Shown one piece after another: positions 1 through 25,170 of a stretch of DNA of 64,000 nt; the first letter of the stretch is position 1; each line of letters opens with the position of its first letter. The position numbers were made by a program, and so were the translations under genes. The stretch is from Candidatus Lustribacter sp. (lineage in GTDB: Bacteria > Vulcanimicrobiota > Vulcanimicrobiia > Vulcanimicrobiales > Vulcanimicrobiaceae), in assembly GCA_965277805.1 (NCBI GenBank), contig OZ255842.1, positions 3,584,001-3,648,000 on the forward strand. The letters are read 5' to 3'. The notes under the pieces were generated by a model, which did no database searches, had not been told where the DNA came from, and was given only the letters and a program-made list of their open reading frames with translations.

Positions 1-807
1 GACCGCCGGCGGCGCATAGCGCAGCGCGATCGCGATGTGGGTCGGATTCACGACGACGAACGACGCCTCACGCGTGCGCGCGATCCCGCCGCGCACGAGC
101 GTGCGGTGCAGTTGCTTGCGGCGCGACTTCGCTTGCGGGTCGCCGTCTTGCTCCTTCGCGTCGCGCTTGAACTCTTCGAACGTCATCTTCAATGACTGCA
201 GCCAGCGCCGGCGCACGACCGCATAGTCGGCCAGCGCGAACAGCCCGCCGACCCCGGCCGCGACGAAGCAGGCCTGCAGCATGCCGTCCAGCGCCACGCC
301 GGCCGCGGCCGGCACCGACGTCGTCGCCGTAACGGCGGCAACGGTCCGAACGCCCAGCGGTGCAACGATCGCAATGACCGCAACGAACGCAACGCCCGCG
401 CGCGCTGCCGCCACGGCGGCCTCTGTGCCGAACATCCGTTTGATGCCCGGCAGCGGCGCGAGCTTCGCGAATGCGAACGTTACCGGCGCAACGCGCAGGC
501 CGCCGGTTTGCGCGAAAGTGGTCAGCAAGCCGGCTGCGGCTGCGCACGCTGCCGGCACCAGCGCGAGCTCCGTCAACACGAGCAGCGGCAACGGATCGAT
601 GGGTCCGGCGACGTTCGTGCTCGCGCGCACCGCGTTCGCCGCCGCCGCCGTAACGAGCGGTAAGCACGCCGTGAGCCCGAGCACCGCCGCGGCAAATCCG
701 GCGATGCTCGCGAGTTCGTGCGAGCGCGCGGCATTGCCCTCGCGCTTCGCCCGTTCGCGCCGTGACGGCGTCGCGTCGAACCGTTTCTCCGCACCGTCAT
801 CGCTCAC
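1..807 (-). CDS. flhB: Flagellar export substrate-switch protein FlhB (3' end runs off the window)
   Basis: Not in the ORF track because it has no stop in the window. GTG at 807 gives MSDDGAEKRFDATPSRRERAKREGNAARSHEL; in frame near base 40 reads FVVVNPTHIAIALRY (NPTH autocleavage motif). Confidence 0.95.
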   Translation of the reverse strand, partial: MSDDGAEKRFDATPSRRERAKREGNAARSHELASIAGFAAAVLGLTACLPLVTAAAANAVRASTNVAGPIDPLPLLVLTELALVPAACAAAAGLLTTFAQTGGLRVAPVTFAFAKLAPLPGIKRMFGTEAAVAAARAGVAFVAVIAIVAPLGVRTVAAVTATTSVPAAAGVALDGMLQACFVAAGVGGLFALADYAVVRRRWLQSLKMTFEEFKRDAKEQDGDPQAKSRRKQLHRTLVRGGIARTREASFVVVNPTHIAIALRYAPPAV

Positions 808-1520
808 GGGCGCAACTCGAACGGCAACACGAGCCACGGCTGCGCGGCCAGCGGCGCAAACAGTGGGATGCCGCTCAGCGCAACGACGATCGCGACCGCG
901 AACACTACCGGAAACGCAAGCGAGAAGCTCGCCAGCCGCGGCACGACACGCGCCACCGCAGCCAGCGCGACCTGCACGGTCAACGCAACGGCCAGCGCCG
1001 GTGCCGCAATGAGCAGCGCGGCGCGAACGATCGTCGCGGGCAGTGCAATAGCGAACTGCGTCCACGCTGCCGGCGCGATGATCCCGCCGGGTGCAACGGC
1101 GTCGAAACTGCCCGCGAACGCGCGTACGACCGGCACGTAGCCGTCGAGGAGAAAAAAGCCGGCCAGAAAGACGGACGACCATAGACGGCCGAACGCCTGC
1201 GCCGAAGTGACGTTGGCGTTCGGCACCGCGCCGCGCACGCCGACGTAATCGTCGATCGTGCGCCCGGCGTAATATGCACCGTCGTAGAGCAGCGAGGCGC
1301 CGGTGCCGATGGCCGCACCGAGCAGCGTCTCGCCGGCAACCGCGAGCGTGAACCGGACGCCGTCGAAGGACGCAGCGCGCACGTGCGGCGCGATGACGAA
1401 AGCCAGCGCGAGCGCCAGTGCCGCGCGCACCGGCGGCGGCACGCTTGGGTGCGAGAAGCCCGGTGCCCGGAAGATCATGCCTGCGCTGCGCGCGAAGACG
1501 AGCAGCATCGTCTGCGTCAT
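804..1520 (-). CDS. fliR: Flagellar export gate protein FliR
   Basis: MTQTMLLVFARSAGMIFRAPGFS...GETLLGAAIG...RVVPRLASFSLAFP; hydrophobic; ATG overlaps the fliQ stop; lies between fliQ and flhB. Confidence 0.9.
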   Translation of the reverse strand: MTQTMLLVFARSAGMIFRAPGFSHPSVPPPVRAALALALAFVIAPHVRAASFDGVRFTLAVAGETLLGAAIGTGASLLYDGAYYAGRTIDDYVGVRGAVPNANVTSAQAFGRLWSSVFLAGFFLLDGYVPVVRAFAGSFDAVAPGGIIAPAAWTQFAIALPATIVRAALLIAAPALAVALTVQVALAAVARVVPRLASFSLAFPVVFAVAIVVALSGIPLFAPLAAQPWLVLPFELRP

Positions 1521-1783
1521 CCACGCACGAGCTGCGGGATGCGCGCCACCGCCTCGAGCAGCAATTGCTCGCAAAGCGTGAGGCCGAAACGGCCGAACAG
1601 CGCGCAGGCGAGGCCGACGACGATGACTTTCGGTAACAGCGTGAGCGTCTGTTCCTGGATCTGCGTCGCTGCCTGAAGGATTGCCACGAGCGCGCCGACG
1701 AGCGTCGCAATCGTCAGAATCGGGATCGTCAACAGCGCCGTTACCAGCAGCGCGTCACGTAAGAGGCTCTCAAACTCGGCCAC
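1517..1783 (-). CDS. fliQ: Flagellar export gate protein FliQ
   Basis: 88 aa containing LVAILQAATQIQEQTLTLLPK. Confidence 0.95.
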   Translation of the reverse strand: MAEFESLLRDALLVTALLTIPILTIATLVGALVAILQAATQIQEQTLTLLPKVIVVGLACALFGRFGLTLCEQLLLEAVARIPQLVRG

Positions 1784-1850
1784 ACCGCATACTCGCCGTT
1801 ACGCGATGACCGCGCGATGACCGGGATGTTGCGAAACCTCGACGATTTTC

Positions 1851-1878
1851 GCGGTCCCTCGACAAGCTTGGGATGACA
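1851..1878 (+). repeat. REP-like dispersed repeat, copy 1
   Basis: GCGGTCCCTCGACAAGCTTGGGATGACA; one mismatch to the copy at 6950. Confidence 0.9.
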
Positions 1879-1926
1879 AACTGCGCGCAGGAGATCAGGC
1901 CTGTGCCACGTACGGCAAAAATTACC

Positions 1927-3345
1927 ATGCCGGCCAAGACGATGTTCGACAAGATCTGGGAGCGCCACGCCATCCTCGAAGAGGCAGACGAGACCCTCCT
2001 CTACGTCGACCGCTGTCTATTACATGAGGGCTCGAGTCACACGTTCGAAAACTTGCGCGAAACCTCGACGCCGGTAGCGCGTCACAAGCAAGTGTTTGCT
2101 TTCGCCGATCACTACGTGCCGAGCGATCCCGAGCAGCGCAAGCGGGGAACGACCGCAATTGCCGATCCGGAGATTCGTCACATGGTCGAGCTGCTCGAGA
2201 GCAACACGACCGAACACGGCATCACGCAGTTCGGCATCGCTGACGAGCGTCAGGGCATCCATCACGTTGCCGGTCCCGAGCTCGGCATCACGCTGCCCGG
2301 TCTCGTGATCACCGGCGGCGACTCACACACGTCCACGCACGGTGCGTTCGGAAATTTTTCGTTCGGCATCGGCGCTTCGGAAGTCACGCACGTGCTCGCA
2401 ACGCAAACGATTTGGCAGCGCCGGCCCGGCAACAAGCGGATCGTGGTCGACGGCACGCTCGGCTTCGGCGTCGCACCGAAAGACCTGATCCTCGCGATCA
2501 TCGCGCGCATCGGCATCGGCGGCGGTCTCGGCCACGTGCTCGAATACGCCGGCTCGACGTTCCGCAAGATGTCGATGGACGAGCGCATGACCATCTGCAA
2601 CATGTCGATCGAAGCGGGCGCGCGCGCCGGCATGATCGCCCCTGACGACGTCACGTACGCTTATATTGAAGGCCGCCCATATGCGCCGCAGGGCGCAGAC
2701 TTCGAGCGTGCGGTCGCATACTGGAAGACCCTGCCATCGGATGACGACGCCAAATTCGATCAAATCGTCACGCTCGATGCGGCCGCAATCGCGCCGCACG
2801 TCACCTGGGGGACGAATCCCGAACAGGGCCGGCCGATCTCCGAACGCGTCCCCGATCCGGCCGCCGAAGCCGATCCGGAACGCCGCGCCGAAATCGCCAA
2901 GTCGCTGCAGTACATGGACCTCAGGCCCGGCATGCCGCTAACCGAGATCGGCGTCGATCGCGTCTTCATCGGCTCGTGCACGAACAGCCGCATCGAAGAT
3001 CTGCGCTCCGCCGCCGCCGTTGCGCGTCGCGGTCACGCCGTGGTGCCGACGTGGGTTGTGCCCGGCTCGGTTGCGGTGAAACGGCAAGCCGAAGCGGAGG
3101 GCCTCGATCGCGTGTTCATTACGGCGGGCTTCGAATGGCGCGAACCGGGCTGCTCGCTGTGCACGGCGCTCAACGGCGACATGATTCAGCCGGGCGAACG
3201 CTGCGCGTCAACCTCAAACCGCAATTTCCCCGGCCGGCAAGGACCGCTCGGACGCACGCACCTGATGAGCCCGGCGATGGCCGCAGCCGCGGCGATCACG
3301 GGTCACCTCACCGACGTTCGCCAACTCTCCGCCGGCAACAACTAA
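1927..3345 (+). CDS. leuC: Aconitase-family LeuC-like dehydratase/isomerase large subunit (divergent paralogue)
   Basis: KTMFDKIW, GDSHTSTHGAFG, FIGSCTNSRIEDLR, PGCSLC, STSNRNFPGRQG. Confidence 0.85.
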   Translation: MPAKTMFDKIWERHAILEEADETLLYVDRCLLHEGSSHTFENLRETSTPVARHKQVFAFADHYVPSDPEQRKRGTTAIADPEIRHMVELLESNTTEHGITQFGIADERQGIHHVAGPELGITLPGLVITGGDSHTSTHGAFGNFSFGIGASEVTHVLATQTIWQRRPGNKRIVVDGTLGFGVAPKDLILAIIARIGIGGGLGHVLEYAGSTFRKMSMDERMTICNMSIEAGARAGMIAPDDVTYAYIEGRPYAPQGADFERAVAYWKTLPSDDDAKFDQIVTLDAAAIAPHVTWGTNPEQGRPISERVPDPAAEADPERRAEIAKSLQYMDLRPGMPLTEIGVDRVFIGSCTNSRIEDLRSAAAVARRGHAVVPTWVVPGSVAVKRQAEAEGLDRVFITAGFEWREPGCSLCTALNGDMIQPGERCASTSNRNFPGRQGPLGRTHLMSPAMAAAAAITGHLTDVRQLSAGNN

Positions 3346-3962
3346 TGGAACCATTCACCCGCGTCACGGCGATCGCCGTGCCGTTCGACGAAGCCAACGT
3401 CGATACGAACCAGCTCTGCCCGACTCGCTTCAACAAGGTTCCGCGCGGCGAACGCTTCTGGAGCGTGATGCTGCACGACCGGCGCTTCAATCCGGATGAG
3501 TCGGAGAAGCCCGAGTTCATCTTCAATCAAGAACCATACCGGAAGGCCGGCATCATCGTGGCCGGCCGCAACTTCGGCGTCGGGTCGTCGCGCGAGACGG
3601 CGGTCTTCGGGCTCGTCTACTTTGGCATCCGGTGCGTCATCGCGCCGAGCCTGGGCGACATCTTCACCAACAACGCATACAAGAACGGGTTGCTCCCGAT
3701 CGTCCTGCCGGCCGAAGCGGTGACCGATCTCATGCAGCAACTGCAAGCCGAACGCGGCGCGGAGATCACCGTCGATCTGCCGAGTCAAGCCGTGATCGCG
3801 CCCAATGGCACGACCTACACGTTCGACATCAAGCCGCTGCGCAAGCGCTGCTTGAGTCTCGGTCTGGATGAGATCGCGCTAACCAAAACGTTCGGCGACA
3901 AGATCGATTCGTTCGAGGCGAACTACAAACGCACGTATGACTGGCTCGACACCGGAGCCTGA
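3345..3962 (+). CDS. leuD: LeuD-like small subunit (divergent paralogue)
   Basis: ATG overlaps the leuC stop; NVDTNQLCP, GRNFGVGSSRE, GDIFTNNAYKNGLLPI, GLDEIALT. Confidence 0.85.
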   Translation: MEPFTRVTAIAVPFDEANVDTNQLCPTRFNKVPRGERFWSVMLHDRRFNPDESEKPEFIFNQEPYRKAGIIVAGRNFGVGSSRETAVFGLVYFGIRCVIAPSLGDIFTNNAYKNGLLPIVLPAEAVTDLMQQLQAERGAEITVDLPSQAVIAPNGTTYTFDIKPLRKRCLSLGLDEIALTKTFGDKIDSFEANYKRTYDWLDTGA

Positions 3963-4443
3963 TCGCCCCTCGACGCTCGAGCACCTCGGCTTCGTCTTGG
4001 TGCTCGGTGTATTCATGGGCTGGTATCTCTGGAACAGCGCTGCCGCATCGGCGACCTTTGAGAACTTGTTCTTGGTCGGCCCGGTCAGCGTGCTCGGGCT
4101 CGCGCTGGTCGCGATCGTCATCGGGTTGACCATCGCGCAGAAAAACGCGCCGGCCGCAGCCGCGGGAGCGATCCCGGATCGCTTGCCGGTTGGCCGCACG
4201 CGCGATGCGATCGCCGTCATTATCGCGTTTCTCGTTTTCGTCGCTGCAGCACCGGTCATCGGTTTCGATCTCTCGACCTTCTTCTTCATGGCCGCCGTGA
4301 TGTGGTACCTCGGCGAGCGGCGCATCGTGTGGATCGCGGGCATCTCGCTCGCGCTCGCGGTGCTGCTCACCATCGGCGCGCTCGCGACGCTGACCTATCC
4401 CCTGCCGACCGCGATTCTCGGCCGGCTCTGGGCGCTGCTGTGA
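3937..4443 (+). CDS. tctB: Tripartite tricarboxylate transporter small membrane subunit TctB-like
   Basis: 168 aa with 4-5 TM segments, directly upstream of tctA. Confidence 0.7.
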   Translation: MTGSTPEPDRPSTLEHLGFVLVLGVFMGWYLWNSAAASATFENLFLVGPVSVLGLALVAIVIGLTIAQKNAPAAAAGAIPDRLPVGRTRDAIAVIIAFLVFVAAAPVIGFDLSTFFFMAAVMWYLGERRIVWIAGISLALAVLLTIGALATLTYPLPTAILGRLWALL

Positions 4444-5963
4444 TCGATCTCCACGCGCTGCAATCGGCGTTCACGATTCTCTCATCGTCAAACTTGGCGT
4501 GGCTGCTCGTCGTTCCGGGCGTCATCCTCGGCATGCTCGGCGGTGCCTTGCCCGGCGTCTCCGGCGCGCTGATTTTGGCGCTCGTGCTGCCGGTGACGCT
4601 GCGTATGGATTTTCTGCCGGCGCTCGTGTTTCTCACCGCAATCCACACCGGCTCGCTGTTCGGCGTTGCAGTGCCCGCGATTCTCATGAACGTGCCGGGC
4701 TCGGCGGCCGCAGTCGCCACGTCTTTCGACGGCTATCCGATGTCGCGGCGCGGCGAACACAACGTCGCGCTCGGCCTCGCGCTTTCGGCCTCCGTGCTTG
4801 GCCATCTCGGCGCCTACATTCTGCTGTTCTTGTGGATCGAACCGATTTCGCACGCGGTGTTGAAGCTTGGTCCGCCGGAGATGCTGTTGATCATGCTGTG
4901 GGGCCTGACGCTCATCGCGGCCTTACGCGGCAAACACATGTCGCGCAGCCTGCTCGCCGGCGTGCTCGGCATTTTGATCGGCACGATCGGGCTCAGTCCG
5001 GGCGGCGCGATTCGCGGCACGTTCGGCATACCGGATCTGCTCGACGGCGTCCCCGTCATCTCGGCGCTGATCGGGCTTTTCGCAGCCGGCGAACTCTTCA
5101 ATCTGGCGGGCACGAAGTTTCTCGTCGATGCGGCCGAACATCGCCGCGTTCGCATCAACGAGATCATCCGCGGTATGCTCGCGGCGCTGCGGTACCCGGT
5201 CGTCATCCTGCGCGGGCTCGCGATCGGCTCGACCATCGGCGGCCTGCCCGGCGTCGGCGCATCTGTCTGCAATCTCATCTCCTACGTCGAGACGCGCCGC
5301 ACCGACAAACACCCGGAAACGTTCGGCACGGGCAATCCCAAAGGCGTCGTCGCCGCCGAAGCGGGCAACGCGAGCTCCGAAGGCGGCTCGATGGCGACGC
5401 TGCTCGCGCTCGGCATCCCGGGTGGCGCCTCGTCGGCCGTGATGCTGGCCGCCTTTGCGCTGCACAATATCACCGGCGGCCCGCAATTCATCACGAAGTC
5501 CAAAGATGTCGTCTACGCAATCATCATGACGAACTTCGCCAACGGCGTCGTGCTGCTGCTGCTCGGCATCGTGCTGACCGGTCTGATGGCAAACATCGTG
5601 CGCATTCCCGTACGCATCCTCATCCCGGCGATCTTGGCGCTCGCGACGTTCGGTGCGTACAGCTTCGACGGCAGCATGATCGGGCCGTTCACCATGGCGG
5701 TGTTTGCCGTGCTCGGCTGGTTCATGCGCCGTCACGATTATTCGATCCCCGCCTGCGCCGTCGGCTTGATCCTCGGCAAGAACATCGAACAGCAACTGCT
5801 CAACTCGATTCAGGTGAGCGGCGGCGGACTCAGCTACTTCTTAGGCCGGCCGATCGCGCTGACACTTTTCGTGCTTCTCGTCGGTTCGATGGTCTATCGC
5901 CCGGTCATGGACCGGGTACGCACGTTCGGCCGGCGCGCCGAGAAAGATCCCGCTGCATGTTGA
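4440..5963 (+). CDS. tctA: Tripartite tricarboxylate transporter large permease TctA
   Basis: GTG at 4440; GALPGVSG, AILMNVPGSAAAVATSFDGYPM, FGTGNPKGVVAAEAGN, LALGIPG. Confidence 0.92.
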   Translation: MIDLHALQSAFTILSSSNLAWLLVVPGVILGMLGGALPGVSGALILALVLPVTLRMDFLPALVFLTAIHTGSLFGVAVPAILMNVPGSAAAVATSFDGYPMSRRGEHNVALGLALSASVLGHLGAYILLFLWIEPISHAVLKLGPPEMLLIMLWGLTLIAALRGKHMSRSLLAGVLGILIGTIGLSPGGAIRGTFGIPDLLDGVPVISALIGLFAAGELFNLAGTKFLVDAAEHRRVRINEIIRGMLAALRYPVVILRGLAIGSTIGGLPGVGASVCNLISYVETRRTDKHPETFGTGNPKGVVAAEAGNASSEGGSMATLLALGIPGGASSAVMLAAFALHNITGGPQFITKSKDVVYAIIMTNFANGVVLLLLGIVLTGLMANIVRIPVRILIPAILALATFGAYSFDGSMIGPFTMAVFAVLGWFMRRHDYSIPACAVGLILGKNIEQQLLNSIQVSGGGLSYFLGRPIALTLFVLLVGSMVYRPVMDRVRTFGRRAEKDPAAC

Positions 5964-6949
5964 TTCGCTGGTTGTTGCCCGTTCTCGGACTCGTGCTCGC
6001 GCTCACGGCGGGCCGCACGATGGCTGCCGACGACGCGTGGCCAACCAAACCGCTCACGATCGTGGTTGCGACGGCGGCCGGCGGCGGCTTCGACCTCATG
6101 GCGCGCATGACGGCCCCGCTGCTCGGCCAGCAACTCGGCGTTCCGGTGGCGGTCATCAACAAGGAGGGCGGCTCCGAGCTGATCGGCTCCGCGTATCTGC
6201 TAAGCCAGCCGCACGACGGCAACACGATCCTGGTCGTGGGTTCGGTGCCGTATTGGTATGCCGACATCAACGAATTGCACGCACCGTTCAAACTCGCCGA
6301 TTTCGACGTGCTCAACATTCAGTCGGAAGACCGCTCGTCGGTGATGGTTCCGAAAGACAGCCGGTTCAAGTCGCTCAAAGATCTGCTGACCGAAGTGAAG
6401 GCGCATCCGGGGACGCTCAGCGTCGCGGTCGTTCGCGACTCGGGGGAGTTCTATAACTTCGGCATCATGCGCGAGAGCCTCGGTTTGCCGCCCTCGGCGA
6501 TTCGCGTCGTCACGTATGAATCGAGCGCACCGCTGCGCACGGCGCTCGCGGGCGGCCAAGTCGATTTCGCCGTCATCTCGCTCGATGCGAGCGCATCGAT
6601 CATTCAGCTGCTGAAACCGCTGGCGATCTTCGGACCGCCCGATAAAGCATTCCCCGGGCTGCCGTCGGTCGAGAGCGTGATCAAACCGATGGGCGCGAAG
6701 TCGCCCGAATTCGTGCCGAGTTCTTACCGCGCATTCGTCGTGCCGGCCGACTTCAAGACGCTCTATCCCGACCGCTACAAAAAGCTACTGCACGCCTACC
6801 AAACGGTCGTGCAGAGCCCCGAGCTGATCCAGAAAGCTGCCGCAGCAAGTCTGCCGGCGCTTTGGCTCGGCCCCGACAAGTCGAAGCAAGAGATCGACCA
6901 TGCCTTCACGCTGTTTCAAAAACATGGAAACTTGCTAACGGAAAAGTGA
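5957..6949 (+). CDS. tctC: TctC/Bug-family periplasmic binding protein
   Basis: ATG at 5957, signal peptide, WPTKPLTIVVATAAGGGFDLMAR, LGVPVAVINKEGG, ALAGGQVD. Confidence 0.9.
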   Translation: MLIRWLLPVLGLVLALTAGRTMAADDAWPTKPLTIVVATAAGGGFDLMARMTAPLLGQQLGVPVAVINKEGGSELIGSAYLLSQPHDGNTILVVGSVPYWYADINELHAPFKLADFDVLNIQSEDRSSVMVPKDSRFKSLKDLLTEVKAHPGTLSVAVVRDSGEFYNFGIMRESLGLPPSAIRVVTYESSAPLRTALAGGQVDFAVISLDASASIIQLLKPLAIFGPPDKAFPGLPSVESVIKPMGAKSPEFVPSSYRAFVVPADFKTLYPDRYKKLLHAYQTVVQSPELIQKAAAASLPALWLGPDKSKQEIDHAFTLFQKHGNLLTEK

Positions 6950-6980
6950 GTGGCGGTCCCTCGACAAGCTCGGGATGACA
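6950..6980 (+). repeat. REP-like dispersed repeat, copy 2 (consensus form)
   Basis: GTGGCGGTCCCTCGACAAGCTCGGGATGACA, beginning immediately after the tctC stop. Confidence 0.92.
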
Positions 6981-7157
6981 GTGGGCATGGTTGGCTACCG
7001 TACATAATACCGTGCAGTAGGTCGAACGACCCATTGCCGAGCGTATTCTCGACTTAGTAGCATTACAGAGCCGTAGTTAGGCCGTCTGAACGAGGGAGCG
7101 ATACGTGTTTGCTCCGGCTCGCAAATATGCCCCGATTGCCGTTTTGAGCTGGGGACC

Positions 7158-9172: not shown

Positions 9173-9173
9173 G

Positions 9174-14469: not shown

Positions 14470-14484
14470 CGGGCCACGTTCATT

Positions 14485-15168: not shown

Positions 15169-15186
15169 GGCCGCGATGTTACCGCG

Positions 15187-18484: not shown

Positions 18485-18487
18485 CGG

Positions 18488-19168
18488 TCAATCCTTCCGG
18501 TGCAGAACGGTGATATAACCGCCCTCTTGTTTGATTTGGCCCGCGCGCACGAGCTGGTTCATCTCGAGGCTCACCGTTTCGCGCGTGCTGCCGATGATCG
18601 AGGCGATGTCTTGATGCGTCAGCCGCAGGTCGAGTAGCGTGCCGTCACCGGTGGTTCGGCCGTGCTCGGCCGCAAGACGCTCGAAGAGATTCACCAGCCG
18701 GTCGCTGATCTTCGCATAGGCGAGATCTTCGATCGTCGCCGACGCATCGCTCAAACGGTCGTTGAGCATCTGCGCGACGTTGAGCGCGAGTGCCGAGTTG
18801 CCGGCGAGCAGCGCGAACAGATCGTCCGCGTGCGCTTTGCAAATCAGCGTTTCTTCCATGCACGTCGCGACCGTCGTGCGTTCACCGCCGCCGAAGAGCG
18901 CGTCTTCACCGAACATGTCGCCCGGGCCGAGAATCGCAACCGTGACTTCCTTGCCGTCGGCGGTGTTGCGCGCGATGCGTACGCGACCGGTCTTGATGAG
19001 AAACACGACCTTCTTCGCATCGCCCTGATCGAAGAACGTGGAGCGCTTGGGCAGCAGCTCCATCGTGAAGATGCCCTCGCTGCCCGCGATCGCCTCGACC
19101 GGCACGTTCGCGAAAAGCCGGTTCTTCTTCAGATACCAGATCTTGTTTTCGGTGTCTTCGGCTTCCAT
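18488..19168 (-). CDS. Crp/Fnr-family transcriptional regulator
   Basis: cNMP domain (ILGPGDMFGE) plus HTH LTHQDIASIIGSTRETVS. Confidence 0.92.
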   Translation of the reverse strand: MEAEDTENKIWYLKKNRLFANVPVEAIAGSEGIFTMELLPKRSTFFDQGDAKKVVFLIKTGRVRIARNTADGKEVTVAILGPGDMFGEDALFGGGERTTVATCMEETLICKAHADDLFALLAGNSALALNVAQMLNDRLSDASATIEDLAYAKISDRLVNLFERLAAEHGRTTGDGTLLDLRLTHQDIASIIGSTRETVSLEMNQLVRAGQIKQEGGYITVLHRKD

Positions 19169-19474
19169 CTAGAGCACCGCCCCGACGACGTGCGGCCGCC
19201 TCAGCGCGCCGGCATGGCTGTCCGCGCGCACGTACGAGAGTTGGATCGCGGCAGTGCCGGAGCGCACGGGCAGCGTCACGTGAAACGGCGAGCACACGTG
19301 CGGCGTGCAGAACGAGGCGATCCAGCCACGCGGCACGTCCACGGCGCGCAACCGCACGACCGATCCCGCCGGGGCGCCGACGCGCACGGCAAACGAGGTC
19401 ACGCCCGGATCGGCCGAGGGGTGGCACGTTCCGGCCGCGAGGGCGCACGAGAGAATCGCCAGTGCCAGACTCAT
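19169..19474 (-). CDS. Small secreted Cys-containing protein
   Basis: 101 aa; hydrophobic start; VPRGWIASFCTPHVCSPF; stop abuts the crp start. Confidence 0.6.
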   Translation of the reverse strand: MSLALAILSCALAAGTCHPSADPGVTSFAVRVGAPAGSVVRLRAVDVPRGWIASFCTPHVCSPFHVTLPVRSGTAAIQLSYVRADSHAGALRRPHVVGAVL

Positions 19475-19518
19475 AGCGCGATGCTACGCTTCCAGCCCCG
19501 GGGCGGCAATAAGCCCGC

Positions 19519-21099
19519 TTACATCCCCGGCCGTTCGAGATACAGCGCGTGGCCGGCGAAGTCGAAGGTGACCGTGAACTTGCGCAGGAGGGCGAGGCCC
19601 ACGTTGCCTGCGTCGATGCGGTCGGCGAAGGCGCCGCTCTTGGCTTGGATCACGTCGGCGTCTTGGTTCGAGACGGTCGTCGAGCCGAGCCGCAGCGAGC
19701 TTATCCGCGTGGCATAGCTCTTGTCGCTGCCGCCCACGCCGATGAAGCTGCCCGTCCCGGTGCCCACCGCCGGCGCCAGCGCCGGGTGCGCGTCGGCGAA
19801 GGGACCGTAGATCAAGAGCGGGCTGCTGTCGCCCGTGTCGATGATGAAGGGCGCGTCGATGTCGTTGATGCGCAACACCGCCTCGGGAATGTCGCGGTCG
19901 GTATCGATTGCGATGCGGTCGCCGGCCGGTGTAATCGAACCGGGCGGGCCGAAGCGCATCACGTGGTGCGCGAAGTCGAGCTGCACGATGCTCGCGGCGA
20001 AGAACGGATAGCCCAAAATGCCGTCGATGCGCATGTGGCCGGCCGACGAACCCAACTCGATCGTCGAGATGACCAAGTTGTCGAGATATGCGTTGCCGAT
20101 CGTCAAGCGCGGCAATCGCGCGACGTGCAGGCCGCCCGCGCGCACCGCGCCGCGCACTTCCATCGAGCCTTCTTGCCCGATACCGGCCGCTTGCGCGACC
20201 TGCGAATCGAGCAGCACGTCGGCGGATCCGCTGTCGATGAGAAATGCGTACGGTTTGCCGCCGATCTGCACGACGCACGCGATGCGCGTGCCGTCATCGA
20301 GCAGCGGTACCGTTTGCGCGCCCGCAGCGATCAACCGCCGCGGCACAAGTGGCGCAAACAGGGCGCCGTCGATCGCGCCGCCGACTTTCACCGACGTCGT
20401 TTGCACGATCGTATCGAAGTCGTGTTCGCCGTCGGTCGTGACGGCGTGAAACGCCATCGCCATGCCGCTGACGTCGTGCCAGTCCGACAGGTCCACGTAC
20501 GTCGGCCCGTCGCCGTCGAGATATTCCGTGCGCAGCGGCAAGCCGCTCTCGGTATCGATCCAGATCGTTTCGGGTTCGCCGCCCTCGGCGTTGACCTCGA
20601 TGTTCCACGTGCGCCGGTCGCCGACCATGCCGAAGGCCAGAAAGCGCGCGCGTTCGGGCGCGGTGAGAAATTTTCCCGAATCGATGAAGTTCGCGGTCAG
20701 CGCGCGCCGGCGCAGCACGCCGGTGAGTTCTTGCACGTTGCCGTCGCTCGACGCCCAGATGCGATCGCCGATGCGCAGCGTCGTTTCCATCCGTGGACCG
20801 AGGCTCTCATCGTCGCGTTCGCGGTCCCCGTCGCGCCAGCTGTGAAAGACGCCGCTGAGTCCTTCGCCCGTAATCGTGCCGGTGGTTTCCATCGTCGCAA
20901 CGTCGCGGCCGTGCGTGGCTTTCTGATACGCCGCGAGAATGCCGGTGATCGGCGGCGGATCGCCGATATCGCGTGCTTCGGCAACGGGCATGCACGCAAG
21001 CGCAATCAGCGCCGCGGCAAAGAGAACGCCCTTACGGTTGCGAGCGGTACTGGTCGAGCGAACCGAGGACGTTTTTGACGTAGTTTTGCGTCTCGGCAT
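19519..21099 (-). CDS. Secreted aspartyl protease with two retropepsin-like domains (start uncertain)
   Basis: FLIDSGS...DGILGYPFF and FIIDTGD...GNVGLALL; signal-like [12 protein letters not shown]. Confidence 0.8.
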
Positions 21100-21610
21100 A
21101 CGGGGGCACATCACCGTATTTTTCAACGGCATTCGGACCGGCATTGTAGGCGGCGACCGCAAGGCGCGTGTCGCCTTTGAAACGATCGAGCAGGCCGCGC
21201 AGATAGCGCGTTCCGCCCGCAACGTTCTGGGCGGGATCGTAGGGGTTCTTCACACCGAGCGACGCGGCCGTCTCGGGCATGAGCTGCATCAGCCCCTGCG
21301 CGCCGACCGGCGACGTTGCGTTGGCGTTGAACGACGACTCGTTCGCGATGACGGATTTGATCAGCGCGGGATCGACTTGCCAGATGTCGGCGTTCTGCTG
21401 CACGAGCGAGTTGATCTGCTCGGGCGGAACGGGTGCGGGCGCGTCGGGATTCTCCGTGCTCGCCGGGGCGAGTTCGGGCATCAGCGCCTGTGCGAGGACC
21501 GCGTTGAAATCGCTGCCGGGCGGCGTCGTGACGACGGCGCCGGCCGGGGGTGCTCCGCTAATCTGGGCAATCCGGTTCTGGATCGCCGAGATGTCACTGA
21601 GGATATCCAT
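21032..21610 (-). CDS. Lytic transglycosylase (SLT domain)
   Basis: [43 protein letters not shown]. Confidence 0.93.
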
Positions 21611-22640
21611 CGTCCAAGCTATCGGCGATTGCGGTCATCTGCATGAGGGTTTCGGCCGGATCCGCTCCCCCCTCCGCTTGCTTGAGAAAGCCCGCGATGC
21701 GGGCCTCGGCGGCGATCGCGCGGGCCAGGACGGGATCGCCGGCACCCGGATCGAGGCCGAGTGAGCGGGCATCGCGAGCGCTATCGAGCGCAGCCAGAGC
21801 TGCCCGCAGGCGCGCCGCAGCGCGACGATGCTCGGGCGTTGCGACTTCGCCCAGGGTGCGGCTCGCGCTGGCCGGGAGATCGATCGCCGGAAACCAGCCC
21901 GCGGCCGCGAGACGCGCGCTGAGGACGATGTGGCCGTCCAGCGCGGCCCGCGCGGCCTCGGCGACCGGATCGTGCTCCAGCGGGCCCTCGGAGAGCACGG
22001 TGGCCACCAGCGTGATGCTGCCGGCCGCCGTCGCCCCGGCGCACTCGAGGAGCCGTGCCTGTGTAGCCGTGACCGATGGTGGAAAACCCGCGCGCCCGAC
22101 CGGCTCGCCCCGCGCGATGGCGAGGTCGCGCGCGGCCGCTGCGACCCGCGCTAGGCTGTCGACGACCAGCAGCACGTGCAGTCCGCGCGAACGCAACGCG
22201 TCGGCCTGGGCAAACGCCATTTCCGCCACGCCCAGCCGTTCCGCCGCGGGACGGTCGCTCGTGGCGCACAGGACGGTCGTGCGCGGCGGGATCCGGCGCA
22301 GCCAGCGCTCGGCCTCGCGGCCCCGCTCGCCGGCCAGCGCCACCACCGTGGCGTCGGCGCAGCTGCCGGCGACGATCGCTTCGAGCAGCGTCGACTTGCC
22401 GGCCCCGGGGCTGCCGAAGATCCCGATCCGCGCGCCGCGCCCGAACGCGAGCGGGCCGTCGAGGGCGCGGATCCCGGTGTGGAACGGCGTCGTCACGGCG
22501 ACGCGCCGGCGCAGTTCCGGAACGCGCGGTGCGGCCGCCCGGCGCCGTCCGATCGGAGCCGGACCGCCGTCCAGCACGCAGCCGCCGGCACCGACGGCGC
22601 GGCCGAGCAGCGCCGTTCCGAGCACGACGCGCGCACTCAT
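21594..22640 (-). CDS. fliI: FliI/SctN-family export ATPase lacking the N-terminal domain
   Basis: ATG at 22640 (ATGA overlap); [17 protein letters not shown] (Walker A), [15 protein letters not shown] (Walker B), [20 protein letters not shown]. Confidence 0.88.
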
Positions 22641-22921
22641 GACACGCGCTCGAGCAACGCCGCGAGTACCGCGTCGATCTCGCGGCCCAATGCTGCACGC
22701 GCGGCCTTCCCGAGCGCGGGATCGCACGATGCATCGAACGCGTCGGCGAGCCGCGCGCGAAACACGCGCACGTCGCGCGCGAAATCCGCACCATCTGCAC
22801 GCGCCGGCGGTTGCGGTTCGGCCGGCGCATCATCTGCCGGCGGCTCCTCCGCGACGGTCGCTTCGGGTGCGGCGCGCAACAACTGCGCGAACGAGACGAA
22901 CGCATCGTCAGCCGCGGGCAC
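22637..22921 (-). CDS. Short protein at the fliH position (FliH remnant?)
   Basis: GTG at 22921; 94 aa; helical ARDVRVFRARLADAFD; overlaps both fliF and fliI. Identity rests on position only. Confidence 0.45.
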   Translation of the reverse strand: MPAADDAFVSFAQLLRAAPEATVAEEPPADDAPAEPQPPARADGADFARDVRVFRARLADAFDASCDPALGKAARAALGREIDAVLAALLERVS

Positions 22922-24377
22922 GCAACAACTCCTCAGGATGCGGCACGAGGTCGCTCGCGGCGCGCGCCAGTCGCCGCACGATTTGCGCGCGCTCCTCAGG
23001 CGGATAGAGTTCGAGCACGGCGGCGGCCGTCGCGGCCGGCAGCGCGGAGATGACGGCGGCGGCAACGTGCGGCGGTTCGCCGGCGAGCGCGCCGCGCACG
23101 CGCGCCGGTGGAAGTCCCGCTGATTCGCGCGATGACTTGCGCACGCCGGCCGCTTCCACCGCGCGCACCAGCAAGGCATAGACCGGGCGCGCGCTGCGCA
23201 ACGTCAACACGACGGCACCCGCGACGAGGGCGAGTTGCGGCAGCATGCCGGTGAACAATCCCGCAATGCCCCACGCATCAATCCCGCGTACCGCGGCCGG
23301 CGCCGTCGAGGCGAAGCGCACGGCCTCGACGCGCAACGTATCCCCGCGATGCGCGTCGATGCCGGCCGCGGCCGCCGCGAGCGCGCGAATCGCATCGAGA
23401 TCGATGCCGCGCGCGCCGTCGACGAAGATCGCGACCGATAGGCGCGCGGTCGCATCGGGCGCAGCGGAATGATGCACGTCGCGCGTTTCGCTGCCGCGCT
23501 CTTCGGTGGTCGTGGTTTTCTGGTACTTCTTCTGCGGGCTCGCGTAGCGTTCGTCGCCGTTCGTGCGGGTGAGATCGCCGGCCAGCGGGAGACGTTTGAC
23601 GTCGTGCTCGTCGCGCGCTTCGCCCAGCGGTTCGCGATGCACGCGGACGATCGTCGCGCCCGCGCCGAGCGCCGCATCGAGCGCCGACTGCAGCGAGGCT
23701 TGCAGCGACGTGTCGTCGGGTTCGCTCGTGCCGCCGTCGAGCGCACCGCGATCGTCGAGCACGGTCACGCGCGCGGCATCCAAACCCGGCACACCGCCGG
23801 CGACGAACGCGCGAATACCCGCCACCGCCGCCGGCGAAAGATGCGCGCCCGGCGCGAGCGTGATGCGGACGCTGGCCGATGCGTCGCGCGTCGTTTCGTC
23901 GGCATAGGCGCCGGAACTCGCCGGCGCCACGATCACGCGCGCATCGGCGACGCCGTCCAATCCTCGCAGGCCTTGCGCGAGATCGGCAGCCAGCGCATCG
24001 CGCGTCTGCGCTTCGAGAATGCTCTGCGGCGTGAGCGCGTTGACGTGCGCGAACGTTTCGTCCGACGTGGCGAGATGCCGGTGCGGAACGCCGGCCAGCG
24101 AAAGCCGCAACAGCAACTCCGCGCGTTTGCGCGGATCGACGCGCACGTTGTCGGCCAACGGCGCGTAAGGAACGCCCCAGCCGGCGAGGCGCGTCTGCAC
24201 TTCGGTCAACTGATCCGCGTAGAGCGGCGTGGCGAACAGCGGGATGCGCACGTCGCGCGTCGCGGTGACGCCCCAGCCGAGCGCGACGATCGCCGCGACG
24301 AAACCCGCGAACAGCGCGGCCTTGAGACGCAGCGGCAACGCGCCCAGACGCGCAAGCTCGCGCCGGAACACCTCCAT
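22908..24377 (-). CDS. fliF: FliF MS-ring protein fused to a FliG middle-domain-like tail
   Basis: TM, PLFATPL, LLLRLSLAGVP, GVADARVIVAP, ASASVRITL, FVAGGVPGLDAARVTVLDDRG, RLSVAIFVD, RGDTLRVEAVRF, second TM, then LAGEPPHVAAAVISALPAATAAAVLELYPPEERAQIVRRLA. Confidence 0.85.
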   Translation of the reverse strand: MEVFRRELARLGALPLRLKAALFAGFVAAIVALGWGVTATRDVRIPLFATPLYADQLTEVQTRLAGWGVPYAPLADNVRVDPRKRAELLLRLSLAGVPHRHLATSDETFAHVNALTPQSILEAQTRDALAADLAQGLRGLDGVADARVIVAPASSGAYADETTRDASASVRITLAPGAHLSPAAVAGIRAFVAGGVPGLDAARVTVLDDRGALDGGTSEPDDTSLQASLQSALDAALGAGATIVRVHREPLGEARDEHDVKRLPLAGDLTRTNGDERYASPQKKYQKTTTTEERGSETRDVHHSAAPDATARLSVAIFVDGARGIDLDAIRALAAAAAGIDAHRGDTLRVEAVRFASTAPAAVRGIDAWGIAGLFTGMLPQLALVAGAVVLTLRSARPVYALLVRAVEAAGVRKSSRESAGLPPARVRGALAGEPPHVAAAVISALPAATAAAVLELYPPEERAQIVRRLARAASDLVPHPEELLRARG

Positions 24378-24380
24378 CGG

Positions 24381-24656
24381 CTAGATCTGCAGGCCCAGCA
24401 GCGTTTGCAGTCCCTGCGTGACGCGTTGCGCGCTTGCGGCAGCGAGCTGCAGCGCGATGTCGGCCCGCGCGCGCTCGACGACCATCTCTTGCAGTCCGCC
24501 GCGATGCGCCGCAAACGCGCGCTCGGCATTATCGGCTCCGGCGAGCGCGCCGCTCGCGGCATCGACCAAATCGCCGAACGCGCTTCCAGCTTGCGGCAGC
24601 GGGGTGACCGACGGCGCGTCGGGCGCAACGTCGGGAACGAGCGGTGCGACCTGCAT
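24381..24656 (-). CDS. fliE: Flagellar basal-body protein FliE
   Basis: FGDLVDAA...LQEMVVERARADIALQLAAASAQRVTQGLQTLLGLQI. Confidence 0.85.
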   Translation of the reverse strand: MQVAPLVPDVAPDAPSVTPLPQAGSAFGDLVDAASGALAGADNAERAFAAHRGGLQEMVVERARADIALQLAAASAQRVTQGLQTLLGLQI

Positions 24657-24988
24657 CAGCGTTCGATGTCCAACGTGCGTTCCGCCAGCCGTTTCCCGAT
24701 GTCGAAGATCGATGCGTCGGCTTCATACGCGCGCTGCGCATCGAGCGTCGCGATCAGCTCCGTCAACGCATCGCCCGTGCCGGGTTCCGACGACACCGTG
24801 AAGGCTTCGGTCGTGTCGTCCTCGGCGCCGTCACCCGGAGTTTCCACGAGATGCGCAACCAAACGCTGATACGGATGTCCGGGCGTCGCGGCTTGCGCAG
24901 CCGCTACGTTGCGCGCGTCGAGGTCGAGCATCGTCCGCTGCGCGCTCATCCCGCGCGCCGCAACGTCGAGCAACGCAAAATCCGTCAC
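24656..24988 (-). CDS. flgC: Flagellar rod protein FlgC (short)
   Basis: LDVAARGMSAQRTMLDLDARNVAAA...PYQR...ELIATLDAQRAYEAD. Confidence 0.85.
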   Translation of the reverse strand: MTDFALLDVAARGMSAQRTMLDLDARNVAAAQAATPGHPYQRLVAHLVETPGDGAEDDTTEAFTVSSEPGTGDALTELIATLDAQRAYEADASIFDIGKRLAERTLDIER

Positions 24989-25170
24989 TTCGCCACCAGC
25001 TTGAGCTCGTTCACGCGCGCCTTCACCGCGCCGAGCAGCGCTTCGGTAAACAGCGCCTGCCGCGCCACCGCGCCCATCGACCGCTCATTCGCAGCCCGGC
25101 TCGCCGCAGTAAGTGCATCCCGCGCCCCGGCAGCCGCCGCCGCAGTGGCGTCCCCAATATCAAGACTCAT
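24985..25170 (-). CDS. 61-aa helical protein at the flgB position
   Basis: Stop overlaps the flgC start; C-terminal LLGAVKARVNELKLVAK resembles rod-protein C-termini. Confidence 0.5.
   Translation of the reverse strand: MSLDIGDATAAAAAGARDALTAASRAANERSMGAVARQALFTEALLGAVKARVNELKLVAK

Follow-up and report, generated by a model that had tools for sequence, protein, structure and literature searches.

A divergent, stator-less flagellar-type gene set maintained by selection in an Eremiobacterota genome

Gene content and layout of the cluster

The window, a 64,000-nucleotide stretch of an Eremiobacterota genome (G000), carries at positions 1-25170 of its minus strand a second, divergent set of flagellar-type genes, referred to here as set-2 (Table 1). 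Set-2 is a paralogous flagellar-type III secretion gene set of the class Eremiobacteria, and the window holds most of it. The genes were called with Pfam and NCBIfam profiles plus direct reading of the frames, and all three bore out the minus-strand gene order of the original prediction. All frames are open. By their coordinates, neighbouring genes are mostly joined by start/stop overlaps of 1-17 nt.

Table 1. Features of set-2 and embedded genes in the window (dN/dS where given per gene)
Feature	Position	Strand	Description	dN/dS
flhB	1-807	-	PF01312, E 7.9e-49; runs off the window's left end	
fliR	804-1574	-	at most 256 aa; PF01311, E 1.2e-34	0.09
fliQ	1517-1783	-	88 aa; PF01313, E 6.3e-20	0.03
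Unrelated block	1810-13942	+	~12 kb, splits fliP and fliQ; Pfam	
fliP	14485-15168	-	227 aa; PF00813, E 1.8e-72	0.02-0.10
fliN	15187-15444	-	85 aa; SpoA domain alone	0.012-0.014
FliM-like	15438-16235	-	265 aa; PF01052, E 1.8e-10	
Rod/hook-type axial protein	16232-16954	-	240 aa; FlgE/F/G D1 domain, PF22692, E 1.4e-7	0.13-0.15
orf174	16951-17475	-	direct reading	0.26-0.33
Embedded non-flagellar genes	17963-21060	-	Pfam; signal peptide read directly	
Redoxin	17963-18484	-	embedded	
Crp-family regulator	18488-19168	-	embedded	
orf101	19169-19474	-	embedded	
Protease	19519 to ~21060	-	embedded; Sec-signal protein, LolA-like and two retropepsin-like domains	
SLT lytic transglycosylase	21032-21610	-	directly 3' of fliI; PF01464, E 6e-30	
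fliI	21594-22640	-	348 aa; PF00006, E 2.3e-53	0.12-0.15
Truncated FliH	22637-22909	-	at most 90 aa, about 85; ATGA overlap with fliI	
fliF	22908-24377	-	489 aa, MS-ring protein; PF01514, PF08345, PF14841	
FliE-like	24381-24656	-	91 aa, between flgC and fliF; PF02049, E 0.025 (weak)	0.10-0.16
FlgC-like proximal rod protein	24656-24988	-	110 aa; TIGR01395, E 1.4e-11, under cut-off	0.06-0.11
orf61	24985-25170	-	at the flgB position; direct reading	0.05-0.06

The predicted order missed the SLT lytic transglycosylase gene, and its gaps conceal non-flagellar genes in two places. The block between fliP and fliQ encodes aconitase, a TctA transporter, a GT2 glycosyltransferase, a bactofilin-like protein and a polysaccharide deacetylase (Pfam); the fliP-fliQ gap is ~1.1 kb in L041, 2.6 kb in G145 and 0.95 kb in G047. 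The second run, from redoxin to protease, is found at this location in L032-L054, G145 and G011 and is missing from it in G047 and G134. The SLT protein is 51% identical to the product of the same-position gene of G047. An SLT gene also lies 3' of fliI in G134, a member of the sister family (f3), and the enzyme is conserved in both f3 and the source genome's family (f1). Synteny of set-2 holds across genera and families, with gene lengths and order kept across the bacterial class and the order retained down to 42% FliF identity.

The export gate of set-2 is complete and of flagellar type, consisting of FliP, FliQ, FliR, FlhB and FlhA; the FlhA gene lies just beyond the window edge. The whole FlhB protein is ~307 aa, a length taken from the genome, and its autocleavage motif, NPTH, lies around window position 30. 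The likely fliR start is an ATG near 1520, which overlaps the fliQ stop. FliP scores 236.8 bits with TIGR01103 and exceeds the cut-off of 217.45. FliR scores 95.9 bits with TIGR01400 versus 70.1 with SctT, and FlhA 626.6 bits with the FlhA model versus 467.8 with the SctV model (NCBIfam).

Set-2 also encodes several rod-type axial proteins. FlgC, FliE, orf61, orf174 and the 240-aa protein are assigned by sub-cut-off scores or by position. The FlgC-like protein matches PF06429 at E 0.0046, and the PF02049 match of the FliE-like protein spans model positions 21-88 of 89. No family match to orf61 was found in the profile search; the frame is conserved in G145, G011, G047 and 8 metagenomic loci. 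The 240-aa protein has weak matches to TIGR03506 and TIGR02490, and the N-terminal motif PF00460 was searched for in it and not found. Counting it as the one rod/hook gene, as originally done, is too few: a FlgF/FlgG-like pair lies 155 kb away, outside the window (G000:C1:3763817-3765129). In orf174, a conserved N-terminus and a likewise conserved C-terminal domain are separated by a variable Pro/Arg/Ala-rich linker (alignment A3). Its look-alikes in the Atlas carry HpaP/SctP and Flg_hook (scores 0.93 and 0.91); a ruler assignment found no backing in sequence searches of Pfam and the PDB. As a lead only, orf174 is a candidate for a ruler or switch of the FliK/SctP type.

The ATPase FliI has the Walker A motif GSPGAGKS and lacks the N-terminal β-barrel domain, so that NCBIfam models align only from model positions 70-100 on; FliI of G145 and G011 has ~80 extra N-terminal residues. 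The preceding gene, described before as a 94-aa ORF, encodes a truncated FliH. It has no Pfam match itself; in a visual alignment it corresponds to the first half of ~160-aa proteins in L034, G145 and G047. PF02108 matches those of L034 and G145 (E 7e-5 to 1e-4). Some members of the clade, among them this genome, lack the FliI N-terminal domain and have a shortened FliH. This could indicate ongoing loss of the ATPase module; a dN/dS of 0.12-0.15 tells against it.

A FliF-FliG_M fusion and the FliM/FliN platform

No fliG, fliJ, flgD, fliL, fliO, mot or che genes are located within the set-2 cluster. The reported absence of fliG holds for a separate gene, but a remnant of FliG is fused to FliF. 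FliF contains RBM1-3 followed at about residues 424-473 by a C-terminal remnant of the FliG middle domain (FliG_M; PF14841 at residues 426-472, 36.2 bits versus a cut-off of 25), with 'EPPH' at the position of FliG's EHPQ. In the Vibrio FliF-FliG fusion 8z4d, the FliG part aligns with residues 422-473 of set-2 FliF, the EHPQ region included; the resident FliG aligns weakly with this tail through its residues 143-210. The FliF C-terminal region is the most conserved stretch of alignment A1, and the tail is near-invariant in 25 sequences. FliG_M is annotated in 118 of 120 among the homologues listed. These include WPS_28630 of Vulcanimicrobium alpinum, which is 64% identical; excerpts of the description of this organism report that flagella were not observed and that the flagellin gene is missing (PMC9758169).

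The predicted model of FliF has three periplasmic domains. In Foldseek, FliF MS-ring structures are matched at E 3e-20 to 6e-15 and RBM3-only entries at ~E 1e-7. Both RBM2 and RBM3 structures are among the matches, and FliF with RBM3 fits better than SctJ.

The FliM-like protein consists of a CheC/FliM middle-domain fold and a SpoA C-terminal domain, and no CheY-binding N-terminal peptide is recognisable in it. The best Foldseek match of its AlphaFold model (pLDDT 71.4) is Salmonella FliM (E 3e-10), and FliM middle domains are matched with TM 0.55-0.66. FliN scores 105.2 bits with TIGR02480, exceeding the cut-off of 84, and the copies of 7 metagenomic relatives are 98.8-100% identical to it. 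Co-folding of the FliF tail with the FliM-like protein gave a score of 0.58, while the best of 3 controls reached 0.05; at least 94% of contacts agree between runs, and the partner pLDDT is at least 71. The pair passes a mark that is passed by 58 of 80 solved complexes and 2 of 110 mismatches, and a passing score of 0.60 or lower was obtained for 7 of the 80 solved complexes and for both passing mismatches. The modelling lends weak support to a contact between the FliF tail and the FliM-like protein. The pass may reflect memory, as the FliG_M-FliM complexes 4fhr and 4fq0 are already solved.

Paralogy, selection and distribution

A complete canonical flagellar set is present elsewhere in the genome (G000:C1 ~0.934-0.958 Mb and 1.847-1.859 Mb). 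It has its own fliF, fliI, fliPQR and flhBA; FliG_C is located at 0.936 Mb and motA at 0.950 Mb, FlgI was found, and the genome has four Flagellin_N (PF00669) matches. The canonical FlhA at 0.956 Mb scores 876 bits versus 638 for the set-2 FlhA, and set-2 proteins share 25-51% identity with their canonical paralogues. The original prediction had named such genes elsewhere as evidence against it. The genome-wide search did find full-length fliG, motA, flgI and flagellins, but as a separate complete set. They belong to that set and neither complete nor refute set-2.

The two clusters share the order fliF...fliI...fliM-fliN-fliP-fliQ-fliR-flhB-flhA and differ in protein length. With canonical fliG named via its FliG_C match and canonical fliH, fliM and fliN by position alone, the canonical versus set-2 lengths in residues are at most 576 versus 489 for FliF, 361 versus none for FliG, 282 versus at most 90 for FliH, 445 versus 348 for FliI, 328 versus 265 for FliM and 319 (FliN/Y) versus 85 for FliN. 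In the gate they are 264 versus 227 for FliP, 89 versus 88 for FliQ, 263 versus 256 for FliR, 356 versus 307 for FlhB and 706 versus 705 for FlhA. The term 'miniaturised' suits the cytoplasmic parts FliG, FliH, FliI, FliM and FliN but not the gate, where FlhA, FliQ and FliR are near full length. The extent of reduction differs among lineages.

Set-2 is under purifying selection, with dN/dS of 0.012-0.33 over 14 genes in 26 gene-pair comparisons. One alternative is that it is a decaying duplicate made up of pseudogenes. The truncation of FliH and of the FliI N-terminus, the insertions that split the cluster, the varying lengths among lineages and the lack of a FliF match in 14 of 160 f1 genomes point that way. 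The open frames, the low dN/dS, the conserved order, and the conservation of FliN and of the FliF tail contradict decay, and we reject it as very improbable. Selection rather than decay, as first proposed, also agrees with the order and lengths conserved across the class.

In FlhA trees, set-2 forms its own clade (support 99-100) on the flagellar side of SctV, and 5 SctV references split from it with support 98-99. The canonical FlhA of this genome is not its sister. The split between the set-2 clade and the main FlhA clade is supported at only 87-90, and the basal place of set-2 may result from long-branch attraction. It is highly unlikely that set-2 is an injectisome-type non-flagellar T3SS that delivers effectors into other cells. 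That reading draws on FliI, for which the SctN and FliI models give similar scores (293.8 versus 281.2 bits), and on the SctP/HpaP look-alikes of orf174. It is opposed by the FlhA trees, by the flagellar NCBIfam models that outscore Sct models for FliP, FliQ, FliR and FlhA, by the flagellum-specific FliE, FlgC, FlgF/G-like and FliM-type proteins, and by the fold of FliF. Secretin SctC, the SctD ring and needle SctF were also absent among the cluster genes scanned. The SctV split and the model scores uphold the proposed origin apart from injectisomes.

The distribution of set-2 was surveyed in a sample of 250 genomes of the phylum plus G000 (251 in total), which are related to one another. Set-2 FliF is found at E <= 1e-41 in 144 of 160 f1, 3 of 3 f2 and all 18 f3 genomes; the other 69 genomes gave FliF matches at E 2e-6 to 2.7e-26 or nothing. 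FliG_C (PF01706) is present in 66 of 160 f1 genomes, in none of the 18 f3 genomes and in none of the 50 genomes of the genus g4. Set-2 FliF occurs without FliG_C in the same genome in at least 78 of 160 f1 and 18 of 18 f3 genomes. Flagellin_N matches occur in 77 of 160 f1 genomes, 12 of them weak matches in g4. Five of these 12 were rechecked; all were under the cut-off, and one is an HlyD-family protein. No flagellin was found in the 18 f3 genomes, nor any genuine match in g4. Set-2 is present with or without a canonical flagellum.

Five flagellin-less genomes, 97-99% complete, each have one FHIPEP (FlhA) and one FliP. No MotA-type stator was found in these set-2-only genomes. Each has only one MotA_ExbB match (112-115 bits), which is TolQ/ExbB-like and is the counterpart of a 114.6-bit match at 2.82 Mb in this genome; a counterpart of the canonical-cluster motA is absent. 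The FlgF/FlgG-like pair is conserved in all five, and together with the in-cluster FlgC it accounts for every Flg_bb_rod motif found there. FlgI was absent from the 4 flagellin-less genomes tested. Overall, the Flagellin_N, Flg_bb_rod and FlgI searches revealed no cap, junction, P/L-ring or filament gene among set-2-only carriers.

These data bear on another possibility, that set-2 serves the canonical flagellum as an accessory module, providing a second basal body or export gate under other conditions and sharing its hook, filament and stators. Dual flagellar systems occur in other bacteria, and both sets coexist in this genome. We consider this improbable, given the many genomes that have set-2 FliF without any FliG_C, the lack of flagellin in f3 and g4, and the five genomes with a single FlhA and a single FliP. 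Set-2 also has no FliG_C to engage the stators.

Proposed function and closest known systems

Set-2 derives from a flagellum, has no stator and is maintained by selection. Its products include neither a FliG torque domain nor a stator, hook, junction, cap or filament protein. The lack of torque machinery stated in the original prediction is supported by the absence of FliG_C and MotA-type stators from set-2-only genomes. The torque parts are missing, and the set is kept by selection and present in relatives without a flagellum; therefore, it is probably a non-rotating protein-export device. Non-rotation is deduced here from missing genes, and a stator or torque interface that escaped recognition may exist. 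The export or adhesion function first proposed is likewise inferred.

The explanation we favour, and consider reasonably probable, is a static basal body of FliF ring and rod, predicted to serve as a protein-export conduit, with its platform docked without FliG. FliF would build the MS ring surrounding the gate, and its FliG_M-like tail would dock the FliM/FliN sorting platform directly, bypassing FliG. Such a ring could not be turned without FliG_C and MotAB. The gate would export rod proteins, driven by the proton-motive force and helped by the reduced ATPase, and these proteins would pass the peptidoglycan where the SLT enzyme opens the wall. A short switch of the FliK/SctP type may be provided by orf174. 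The end product would be a static basal body with a rod, most likely a conduit for protein export.

Set-2 could instead assemble the FlgF/FlgG-like pair and the 240-aa protein with the D1 domain into a short static appendage on the surface or in the periplasm, such as a hook-like stub, an adhesin or an envelope strut. Its function would then lie in the structure rather than in secretion. The sole recognisable substrates are indeed axial proteins, orf174 with its variable linker is a possible mini ruler, and both f1 and f3 conserve an SLT enzyme that would allow passage through the wall. However, cap, junction, P/L-ring and filament genes were not found in set-2-only carriers, the ruler assignment of orf174 found no sequence-level support, and the present data fit export equally. 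We regard the appendage as possible but unlikely.

The conduit that we favour resembles an injectisome in being a non-rotating derivative with an SctQ/FliMN-type platform, a lytic transglycosylase and possibly a ruler. Unlike an injectisome, set-2 has an FlhA on the flagellar side and keeps FliE, FlgC, an FlgF/G-like rod and a FliF-type ring. With a rotary flagellum it shares the flagellar-type export gate and the MS-ring protein FliF; the FliG_C rotor, a MotA-type stator and the hook, junction, cap and flagellin proteins are absent in the PF01706, MotA_ExbB, Flagellin_N and Flg_bb_rod searches.

Precedents for such a derivative are found in Buchnera, Chlamydia and Lysobacter. Buchnera has basal bodies without a filament; it has lost flagellin and motility and retains the genes for the basal body and for export, and a role as protein transporter has been proposed. 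It is a reduced endosymbiont with a single ancestral flagellar set. In contrast, set-2 is a second set in free-living soil bacteria; its losses, of FliG_C and the hook, differ from those of Buchnera, and it has a gene fusion. A leftover of the organism's single ancestral flagellar set was considered for set-2 and rejected, since both sets are present here and the set-2 FlhA is not sister to the canonical one.

Passages of a study on Chlamydiaceae describe a FliF whose C-terminal domain is cytoplasmic and homologous to the middle domain of FliG, and the lack of a FliG torque domain (Bergeron, 2016; PMC4768692). Set-2 shares both features. According to the same passages, Chlamydiaceae are not flagellated and retain flagellar-type FliI and FlhA paralogues, and their FliF is ~330 aa, without RBM1 and RBM3 (PMC4768692). 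Compared with that short FliF, the 489-aa set-2 FliF has RBM2 and RBM3 structure matches and three modelled periplasmic domains. As those passages portray them, Chlamydiaceae carry few flagellar genes beside a full injectisome, whereas set-2 has its own FliPQR, FlhB, FliM, FliN, FliE and rod genes.

[quoted passage not shown] Set-2 is similar to what these excerpts describe, a flagellar export apparatus without flagellin with a proposed role in exporting non-flagellar proteins. Unlike it, set-2 is a diverged paralogue with its own FlhA clade that coexists here with a full flagellum, and its parts are remodelled, with FliG_M fused to FliF and FliG_C lost.

Gene content and organization of set-2

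A second, divergent flagellar-type gene set (set-2) occupies the minus strand of the window from 25170 down to 1 in the source genome (G000), a single contig of 5.53 Mb with ~65% G+C; the window spans G000:C1:3584001-3648000. Genes were assigned with Pfam and NCBIfam. Homologues of the window proteins are named Candidatus Eremiobacterota (Lustribacter, Velthaea, Vulcanimicrobium); look-alikes in the Atlas come under the label Vulcanimicrobiota. These assignments bore out the gene order of the original prediction, but its parts list had overlooked three things: an SLT gene, a remnant of FliG within FliF, and the nature of the short ORF upstream of fliI. Neighbouring set-2 genes mostly overlap, by 1-17 nt.

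Features of set-2 and associated genes in G000, in minus-strand order
Feature	Size	Position	Strand	Remarks
orf61		first set-2 gene from 25170	minus	no family match in Pfam/NCBIfam scans
FlgC-like	110 aa		minus	Pfam/NCBIfam
FliE-like	91 aa		minus	Pfam/NCBIfam
FliF	489 aa		minus	Pfam/NCBIfam
Short ORF, putatively FliH-like	at most 90 aa	between FliF and FliI	minus	
FliI	348 aa		minus	Pfam/NCBIfam
SLT lytic transglycosylase	192 aa	after FliI	minus	
Sec-signal protein		within 17963-21060	minus	one LolA-like and two retropepsin-like domains
orf101		within 17963-21060	minus	no family match in Pfam/NCBIfam scans
Crp-family regulator		within 17963-21060	minus	
Redoxin		within 17963-21060	minus	
orf174		after redoxin, before 240-aa D1 protein	minus	
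Rod/hook-type protein	240 aa		minus	FlgE/F/G D1 domain
FliM-like	265 aa		minus	
FliN	85 aa		minus	
FliP	227 aa	before 12-kb plus-strand block	minus	
Unrelated block		1810-13942, between fliP and fliQ	plus	aconitase, TctA transporter, GT2 glycosyltransferase, bactofilin-like repeat protein, polysaccharide deacetylase
FliQ, FliR, FlhB		beyond 12-kb block	minus	FlhB with NPTH
FlhA	705 aa	directly outside the window, after FlhB		last flagellar gene of the run
FlgF-like and FlgG-like pair	195 and 242 aa	G000:C1:3763817-3765129		155 kb from the set-2 cluster

The arrangement is conserved among relatives. In the relative G047, the genes form an almost uninterrupted run of 12 kb (orf61-flgC-fliE-fliF-fliH-fliI-SLT-orf174-rod-fliM-fliN-fliP-[metF]-fliQ-fliR-flhB-flhA), and in the sister family f3 it is split into two pieces with the order unchanged. 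The SLT gene directly follows fliI in G000, G047 and f3. The protease-orf101-Crp-redoxin insert between SLT and orf174 is found at the same place in the relatives G145 and G011 and in 8 metagenomic loci, and is not at that place in G047 or f3. Relatives carry a second Crp-like gene in the insert, and these embedded cyclic-nucleotide regulators may control the set-2 cluster. The 12-kb block, which separates fliQ-fliR-flhB-flhA from the remaining set-2 genes, is peculiar to G000 among the genomes compared; the gap in relatives is 1-2.6 kb, so the block looks like a lineage-specific insertion. Reads covering 14485-17475 of the window came from four runs of one study, of DNA or unspecified kind, none listed as RNA.

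The FlgF/FlgG-like pair has both the N- and C-terminal rod motifs in canonical form, and a counterpart is present in 5/5 flagellin-less genomes. Two genes from the pair, G047 encodes a 229-aa sigma-70-family factor with regions 2 and 4 (locus L022 5853-6542, on G047:C3); this gene is absent from the corresponding place in G000.

The ATPase complex is reduced. FliI begins just ahead of the LLGR motif and lacks the N-terminal β-barrel, and NCBIfam models align to it only from model positions 70-100. The short ORF before it is predicted from its sequence to be the N-terminal half of a FliH-like protein, which in relatives is ~160 aa long and matches PF02108 with E 7e-5 to 1e-4. The FliI N-domain is kept in G145, from the same genus, and in G011, and is missing in G047, the related locus L034 and G000; the short FliH occurs in G000 and the locus L032. 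These losses, of the FliI N-domain and of most of FliH in particular lineages, provide a natural experiment on the dispensability of the ATPase complex.

The orf174 protein is conserved at its N-terminus and in its C-terminal domain, which are joined by a variable Pro/Arg/Ala-rich linker. Its gene stands at the position of fliK in Bacillus-type operons. Language-model look-alikes include HpaP/SctP (0.93) and Flg_hook (0.91), and on these it is a candidate FliK/SctP-type protein, which we offer as a lead only; neither Pfam, run with 9 homologues, nor profile searching of the PDB returned anything above chance level.

Nei-Gojobori comparisons with the related loci L032/L041 (dS 0.32-0.90) and L034 (dS 0.57-1.78, the highest values being near saturation) gave dN/dS from 0.012 (fliN) to 0.33 (orf174) in 26 comparisons of 14 genes. 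These values rule out decay for practical purposes, and the selection proposed originally stands.

The fused FliG remnant and the FliM-like protein

In set-2 FliF, residues 426-472 score 36.2 bits with the FliG middle-domain model PF14841 (cut-off 25), and residues 422-473 align with the EHPQ-bearing FliG segment of an engineered Vibrio FliF-FliG fusion (8z4d). EPPH stands at the place of the FliG EHPQ. Profile comparison with the resident FliG reproduced the register seen with Pfam and the PDB entry, but was not significant alone (E 0.19, probability 0.3). In an alignment of 25 sequences, conservation along FliF peaks in the FliG_M-like tail, and among the homologues listed a FliG_M domain is precomputed for 118 of 120. 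The FliF model (pLDDT 66.8) matches Salmonella FliF rings, RBM3-only entries included, at E 3e-20 to 6e-15, with SctJ-type proteins ranking behind them. Judged by its model, set-2 FliF is thus predicted to be a genuine MS-ring protein.

The model of the FliM-like protein (pLDDT 71.4) contains a CheC/FliM middle domain and a SpoA domain. Its best structural match is Salmonella FliM (E 3e-10), and FliM middle domains superimpose with TM 0.55-0.66; injectisome SctQ matches over the SpoA part only. Co-folding of the FliF tail with the FliM-like protein scored 0.58, compared with 0.05 for the best of 3 controls. Contacts agree between runs to at least 94%, with a partner pLDDT of at least 71. In the benchmark, the mark was reached by 58 of the 80 solved complexes and 2 of the 110 mismatches, and passing scores of 0.60 or under came from only 7 of the solved complexes and both of those mismatches. 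The pass may also reflect memory, because FliG_M-FliM complexes have already been solved. The co-fold therefore weakly supports a contact between the FliF tail and the FliM-like protein.

Origin and distribution

A canonical flagellar cluster is located at 0.934-0.958 Mb of G000 and includes separate copies of fliF, fliG, fliI, motA, fliP, fliQ, fliR and flhA. The genes for rod, hook and P-ring lie elsewhere, as do four Flagellin_N (PF00669) matches. The canonical FlhA scores 876 bits, versus 638 for the set-2 copy; the canonical FliG_C match is 142 bits, and set-2 proteins are 25-51% identical to their canonical paralogues. The original prediction had named full-length fliG, motAB, flagellin and hook-junction genes elsewhere, completing a normal flagellum, as evidence against it. 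Such genes are literally present in G000, but they belong to a complete separate system. The description of set-2 as miniaturised holds for the cytoplasmic parts, which are smaller than their canonical paralogues, but not for the gate proteins, which are of nearly equal size.

For the four gate proteins, NCBIfam flagellar models outscore Sct models: 236.8 versus 181.7 bits for FliP, 62 versus 48.5 for FliQ, 95.9 versus 70.1 for FliR and 626.6 versus 467.8 for FlhA. FliI scores about equally with flagellar and injectisome models. FlhA trees were built from 4 set-2 sequences, the resident canonical FlhA, four named FlhA and five named SctV from plasmids, and full-length rows (≥640 aa) among the best 150 representatives of a 1.84-billion-protein library (136 in FastTree; 8 chosen and 24 random in IQ-TREE). 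In both trees, the set-2 clade, which includes the homologues P0121, P0124 and P0125, has support of 99-100 and groups with FlhA and not with SctV (support for that split 98-99). It is also apart from the clade of the canonical G000 FlhA, on branches with support of 87-90 and possible long-branch effects; on these trees we rejected a recent duplication of the resident flagellar genes. The claim is limited by sequence composition, which was flagged as heterogeneous, and by possible long-branch attraction: set-2 is, from its sequences, judged to be flagellar-type, monophyletic and no recent copy of the resident gene. The trees and the gate-protein scores agree with an origin independent of injectisomes, as originally proposed.

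We scanned the same genomes, 250 of the phylum and G000, for set-2 FliF, FliG_C and Flagellin_N; the tallies include seven unpublished genomes (G128, G178, G213, G231, G233, G246, G248), two of them among the 18 of f3. Strong FliF matches (E ≤ 1e-41) occur in 144/160 genomes of the window's family f1, 3/3 of family f2 and 18/18 of f3, and the other 69 sampled genomes have weak matches or none. FliG_C was found in 66/160 genomes of f1, 3/3 of f2, 0/18 of f3 and 0/50 of the genus g4. By subtraction, at least 78 f1 genomes and 18/18 of f3 carry set-2 FliF without FliG_C. Flagellin_N was found in 77/160 genomes of f1, 12 of these being weak g4 matches, and in 0/18 of f3. We rejected the weak g4 matches as flagellins: 5/5 rechecked were below the cut-off and far from the cluster, and one is an HlyD-family protein.

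Five flagellin-less carriers of set-2, 97-99% complete, have one FHIPEP and one FliP match apiece. Each also has one MotA_ExbB match of 112-115 bits, the counterpart of the TolQ/ExbB-like match of G000 and not of its motA. FlgI was not found in 4/4 of the flagellin-less carriers searched. V. alpinum has a homologue (P0106, WPS_28630) with 64% identity to set-2 FliF; its description states that flagella were not observed and that the flagellin gene is missing (PMC9758169). With a homologue in this cultured flagellum-less species, tomography, knock-outs and secretomics are feasible.

Several other patterns were observed in the scans. FliG_C matches of 78-95 bits occur in families f6 (16/19), f13 (5/6) and f20 (16/16), with Flagellin_N in 0/19, 0/6 and 6/16, respectively; these families may have another flagellin-less or divergent flagellar-type system. 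G077 (genus g12) carries set-2 FliF twice, with strong matches at G077:C62:79813-81225 (E 1e-105) and G077:C18:20802-22226 (E 4e-99); this genome also matches FliG_C but not flagellin. In G209, G181, G178 (unpublished), G122, G243, G249 and G073, the alignment to set-2 FliF covers only its first ~250 residues (E 1e-64 to 6e-69), in frames of 426-478 aa, which points to a variant whose C-terminal half differs. P0124, labelled Candidatus Binatus sp. at NCBI, is the closest full-length FlhA outside f1. It is 73% identical to the f3 set-2 FlhA despite the other-phylum label, and we did not accept it as evidence of spread outside the phylum; the alternatives are a mislabelled bin and presence of the system beyond the phylum.

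Predicted function and known systems

Our best reading is that set-2 encodes a stator-less basal body with a rod, maintained by selection and derived from the flagellum independently of injectisomes. This gene-based prediction keeps the original interpretation in part; the system is not miniaturised throughout. Most likely, set-2 would act as an export conduit. A more specific proposal, which we regard as possible but rather doubtful, is that set-2 evolved on its own into a third non-rotary nanomachine of flagellar descent, beside the injectisome. FliG would have collapsed into the MS-ring protein, the FliM/FliN platform would dock directly, and the stators and all external parts would have been discarded, leaving a rod-bearing basal body as a dedicated protein-secretion organelle across the class Eremiobacteria. 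If true, set-2 would be a present-day analogue of the intermediate through which the injectisome is postulated to have arisen.

The conversion of a flagellum into a static secretion system is usually argued from one case, the injectisome, whose intermediates are lost. Set-2 retains the flagellum-specific rod, FliE, FliF and FliM parts, while the torque domain, stators, hook and filament are gone and a piece of FliG is fused to FliF. Selection has conserved it in most of the sampled members of a lineage that is widespread in soil and peat. Some genomes have it next to a normal flagellum and others have it alone, which provides natural controls.

Our literature search, which did not extend to subscription journals and supplements, found no description of the set-2 system in Eremiobacterota. 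Chlamydiaceae and Lysobacter enzymogenes offer precedents, and Buchnera is a further one. Chlamydiaceae have a FliF-FliG(M) fusion without the torque domain; their FliF is ~330 aa and lacks the ring-building domains, and only a few flagellar genes are left beside an injectisome (PMC4768692). In L. enzymogenes, the flagellar export apparatus is kept without flagellin and is reported to serve other proteins (PMC7688988). Unlike these three systems, set-2 is a diverged paralogue that stands beside a full flagellum in some genomes and alone in others, and its gate, ring, platform and rod are encoded by genes of its own.
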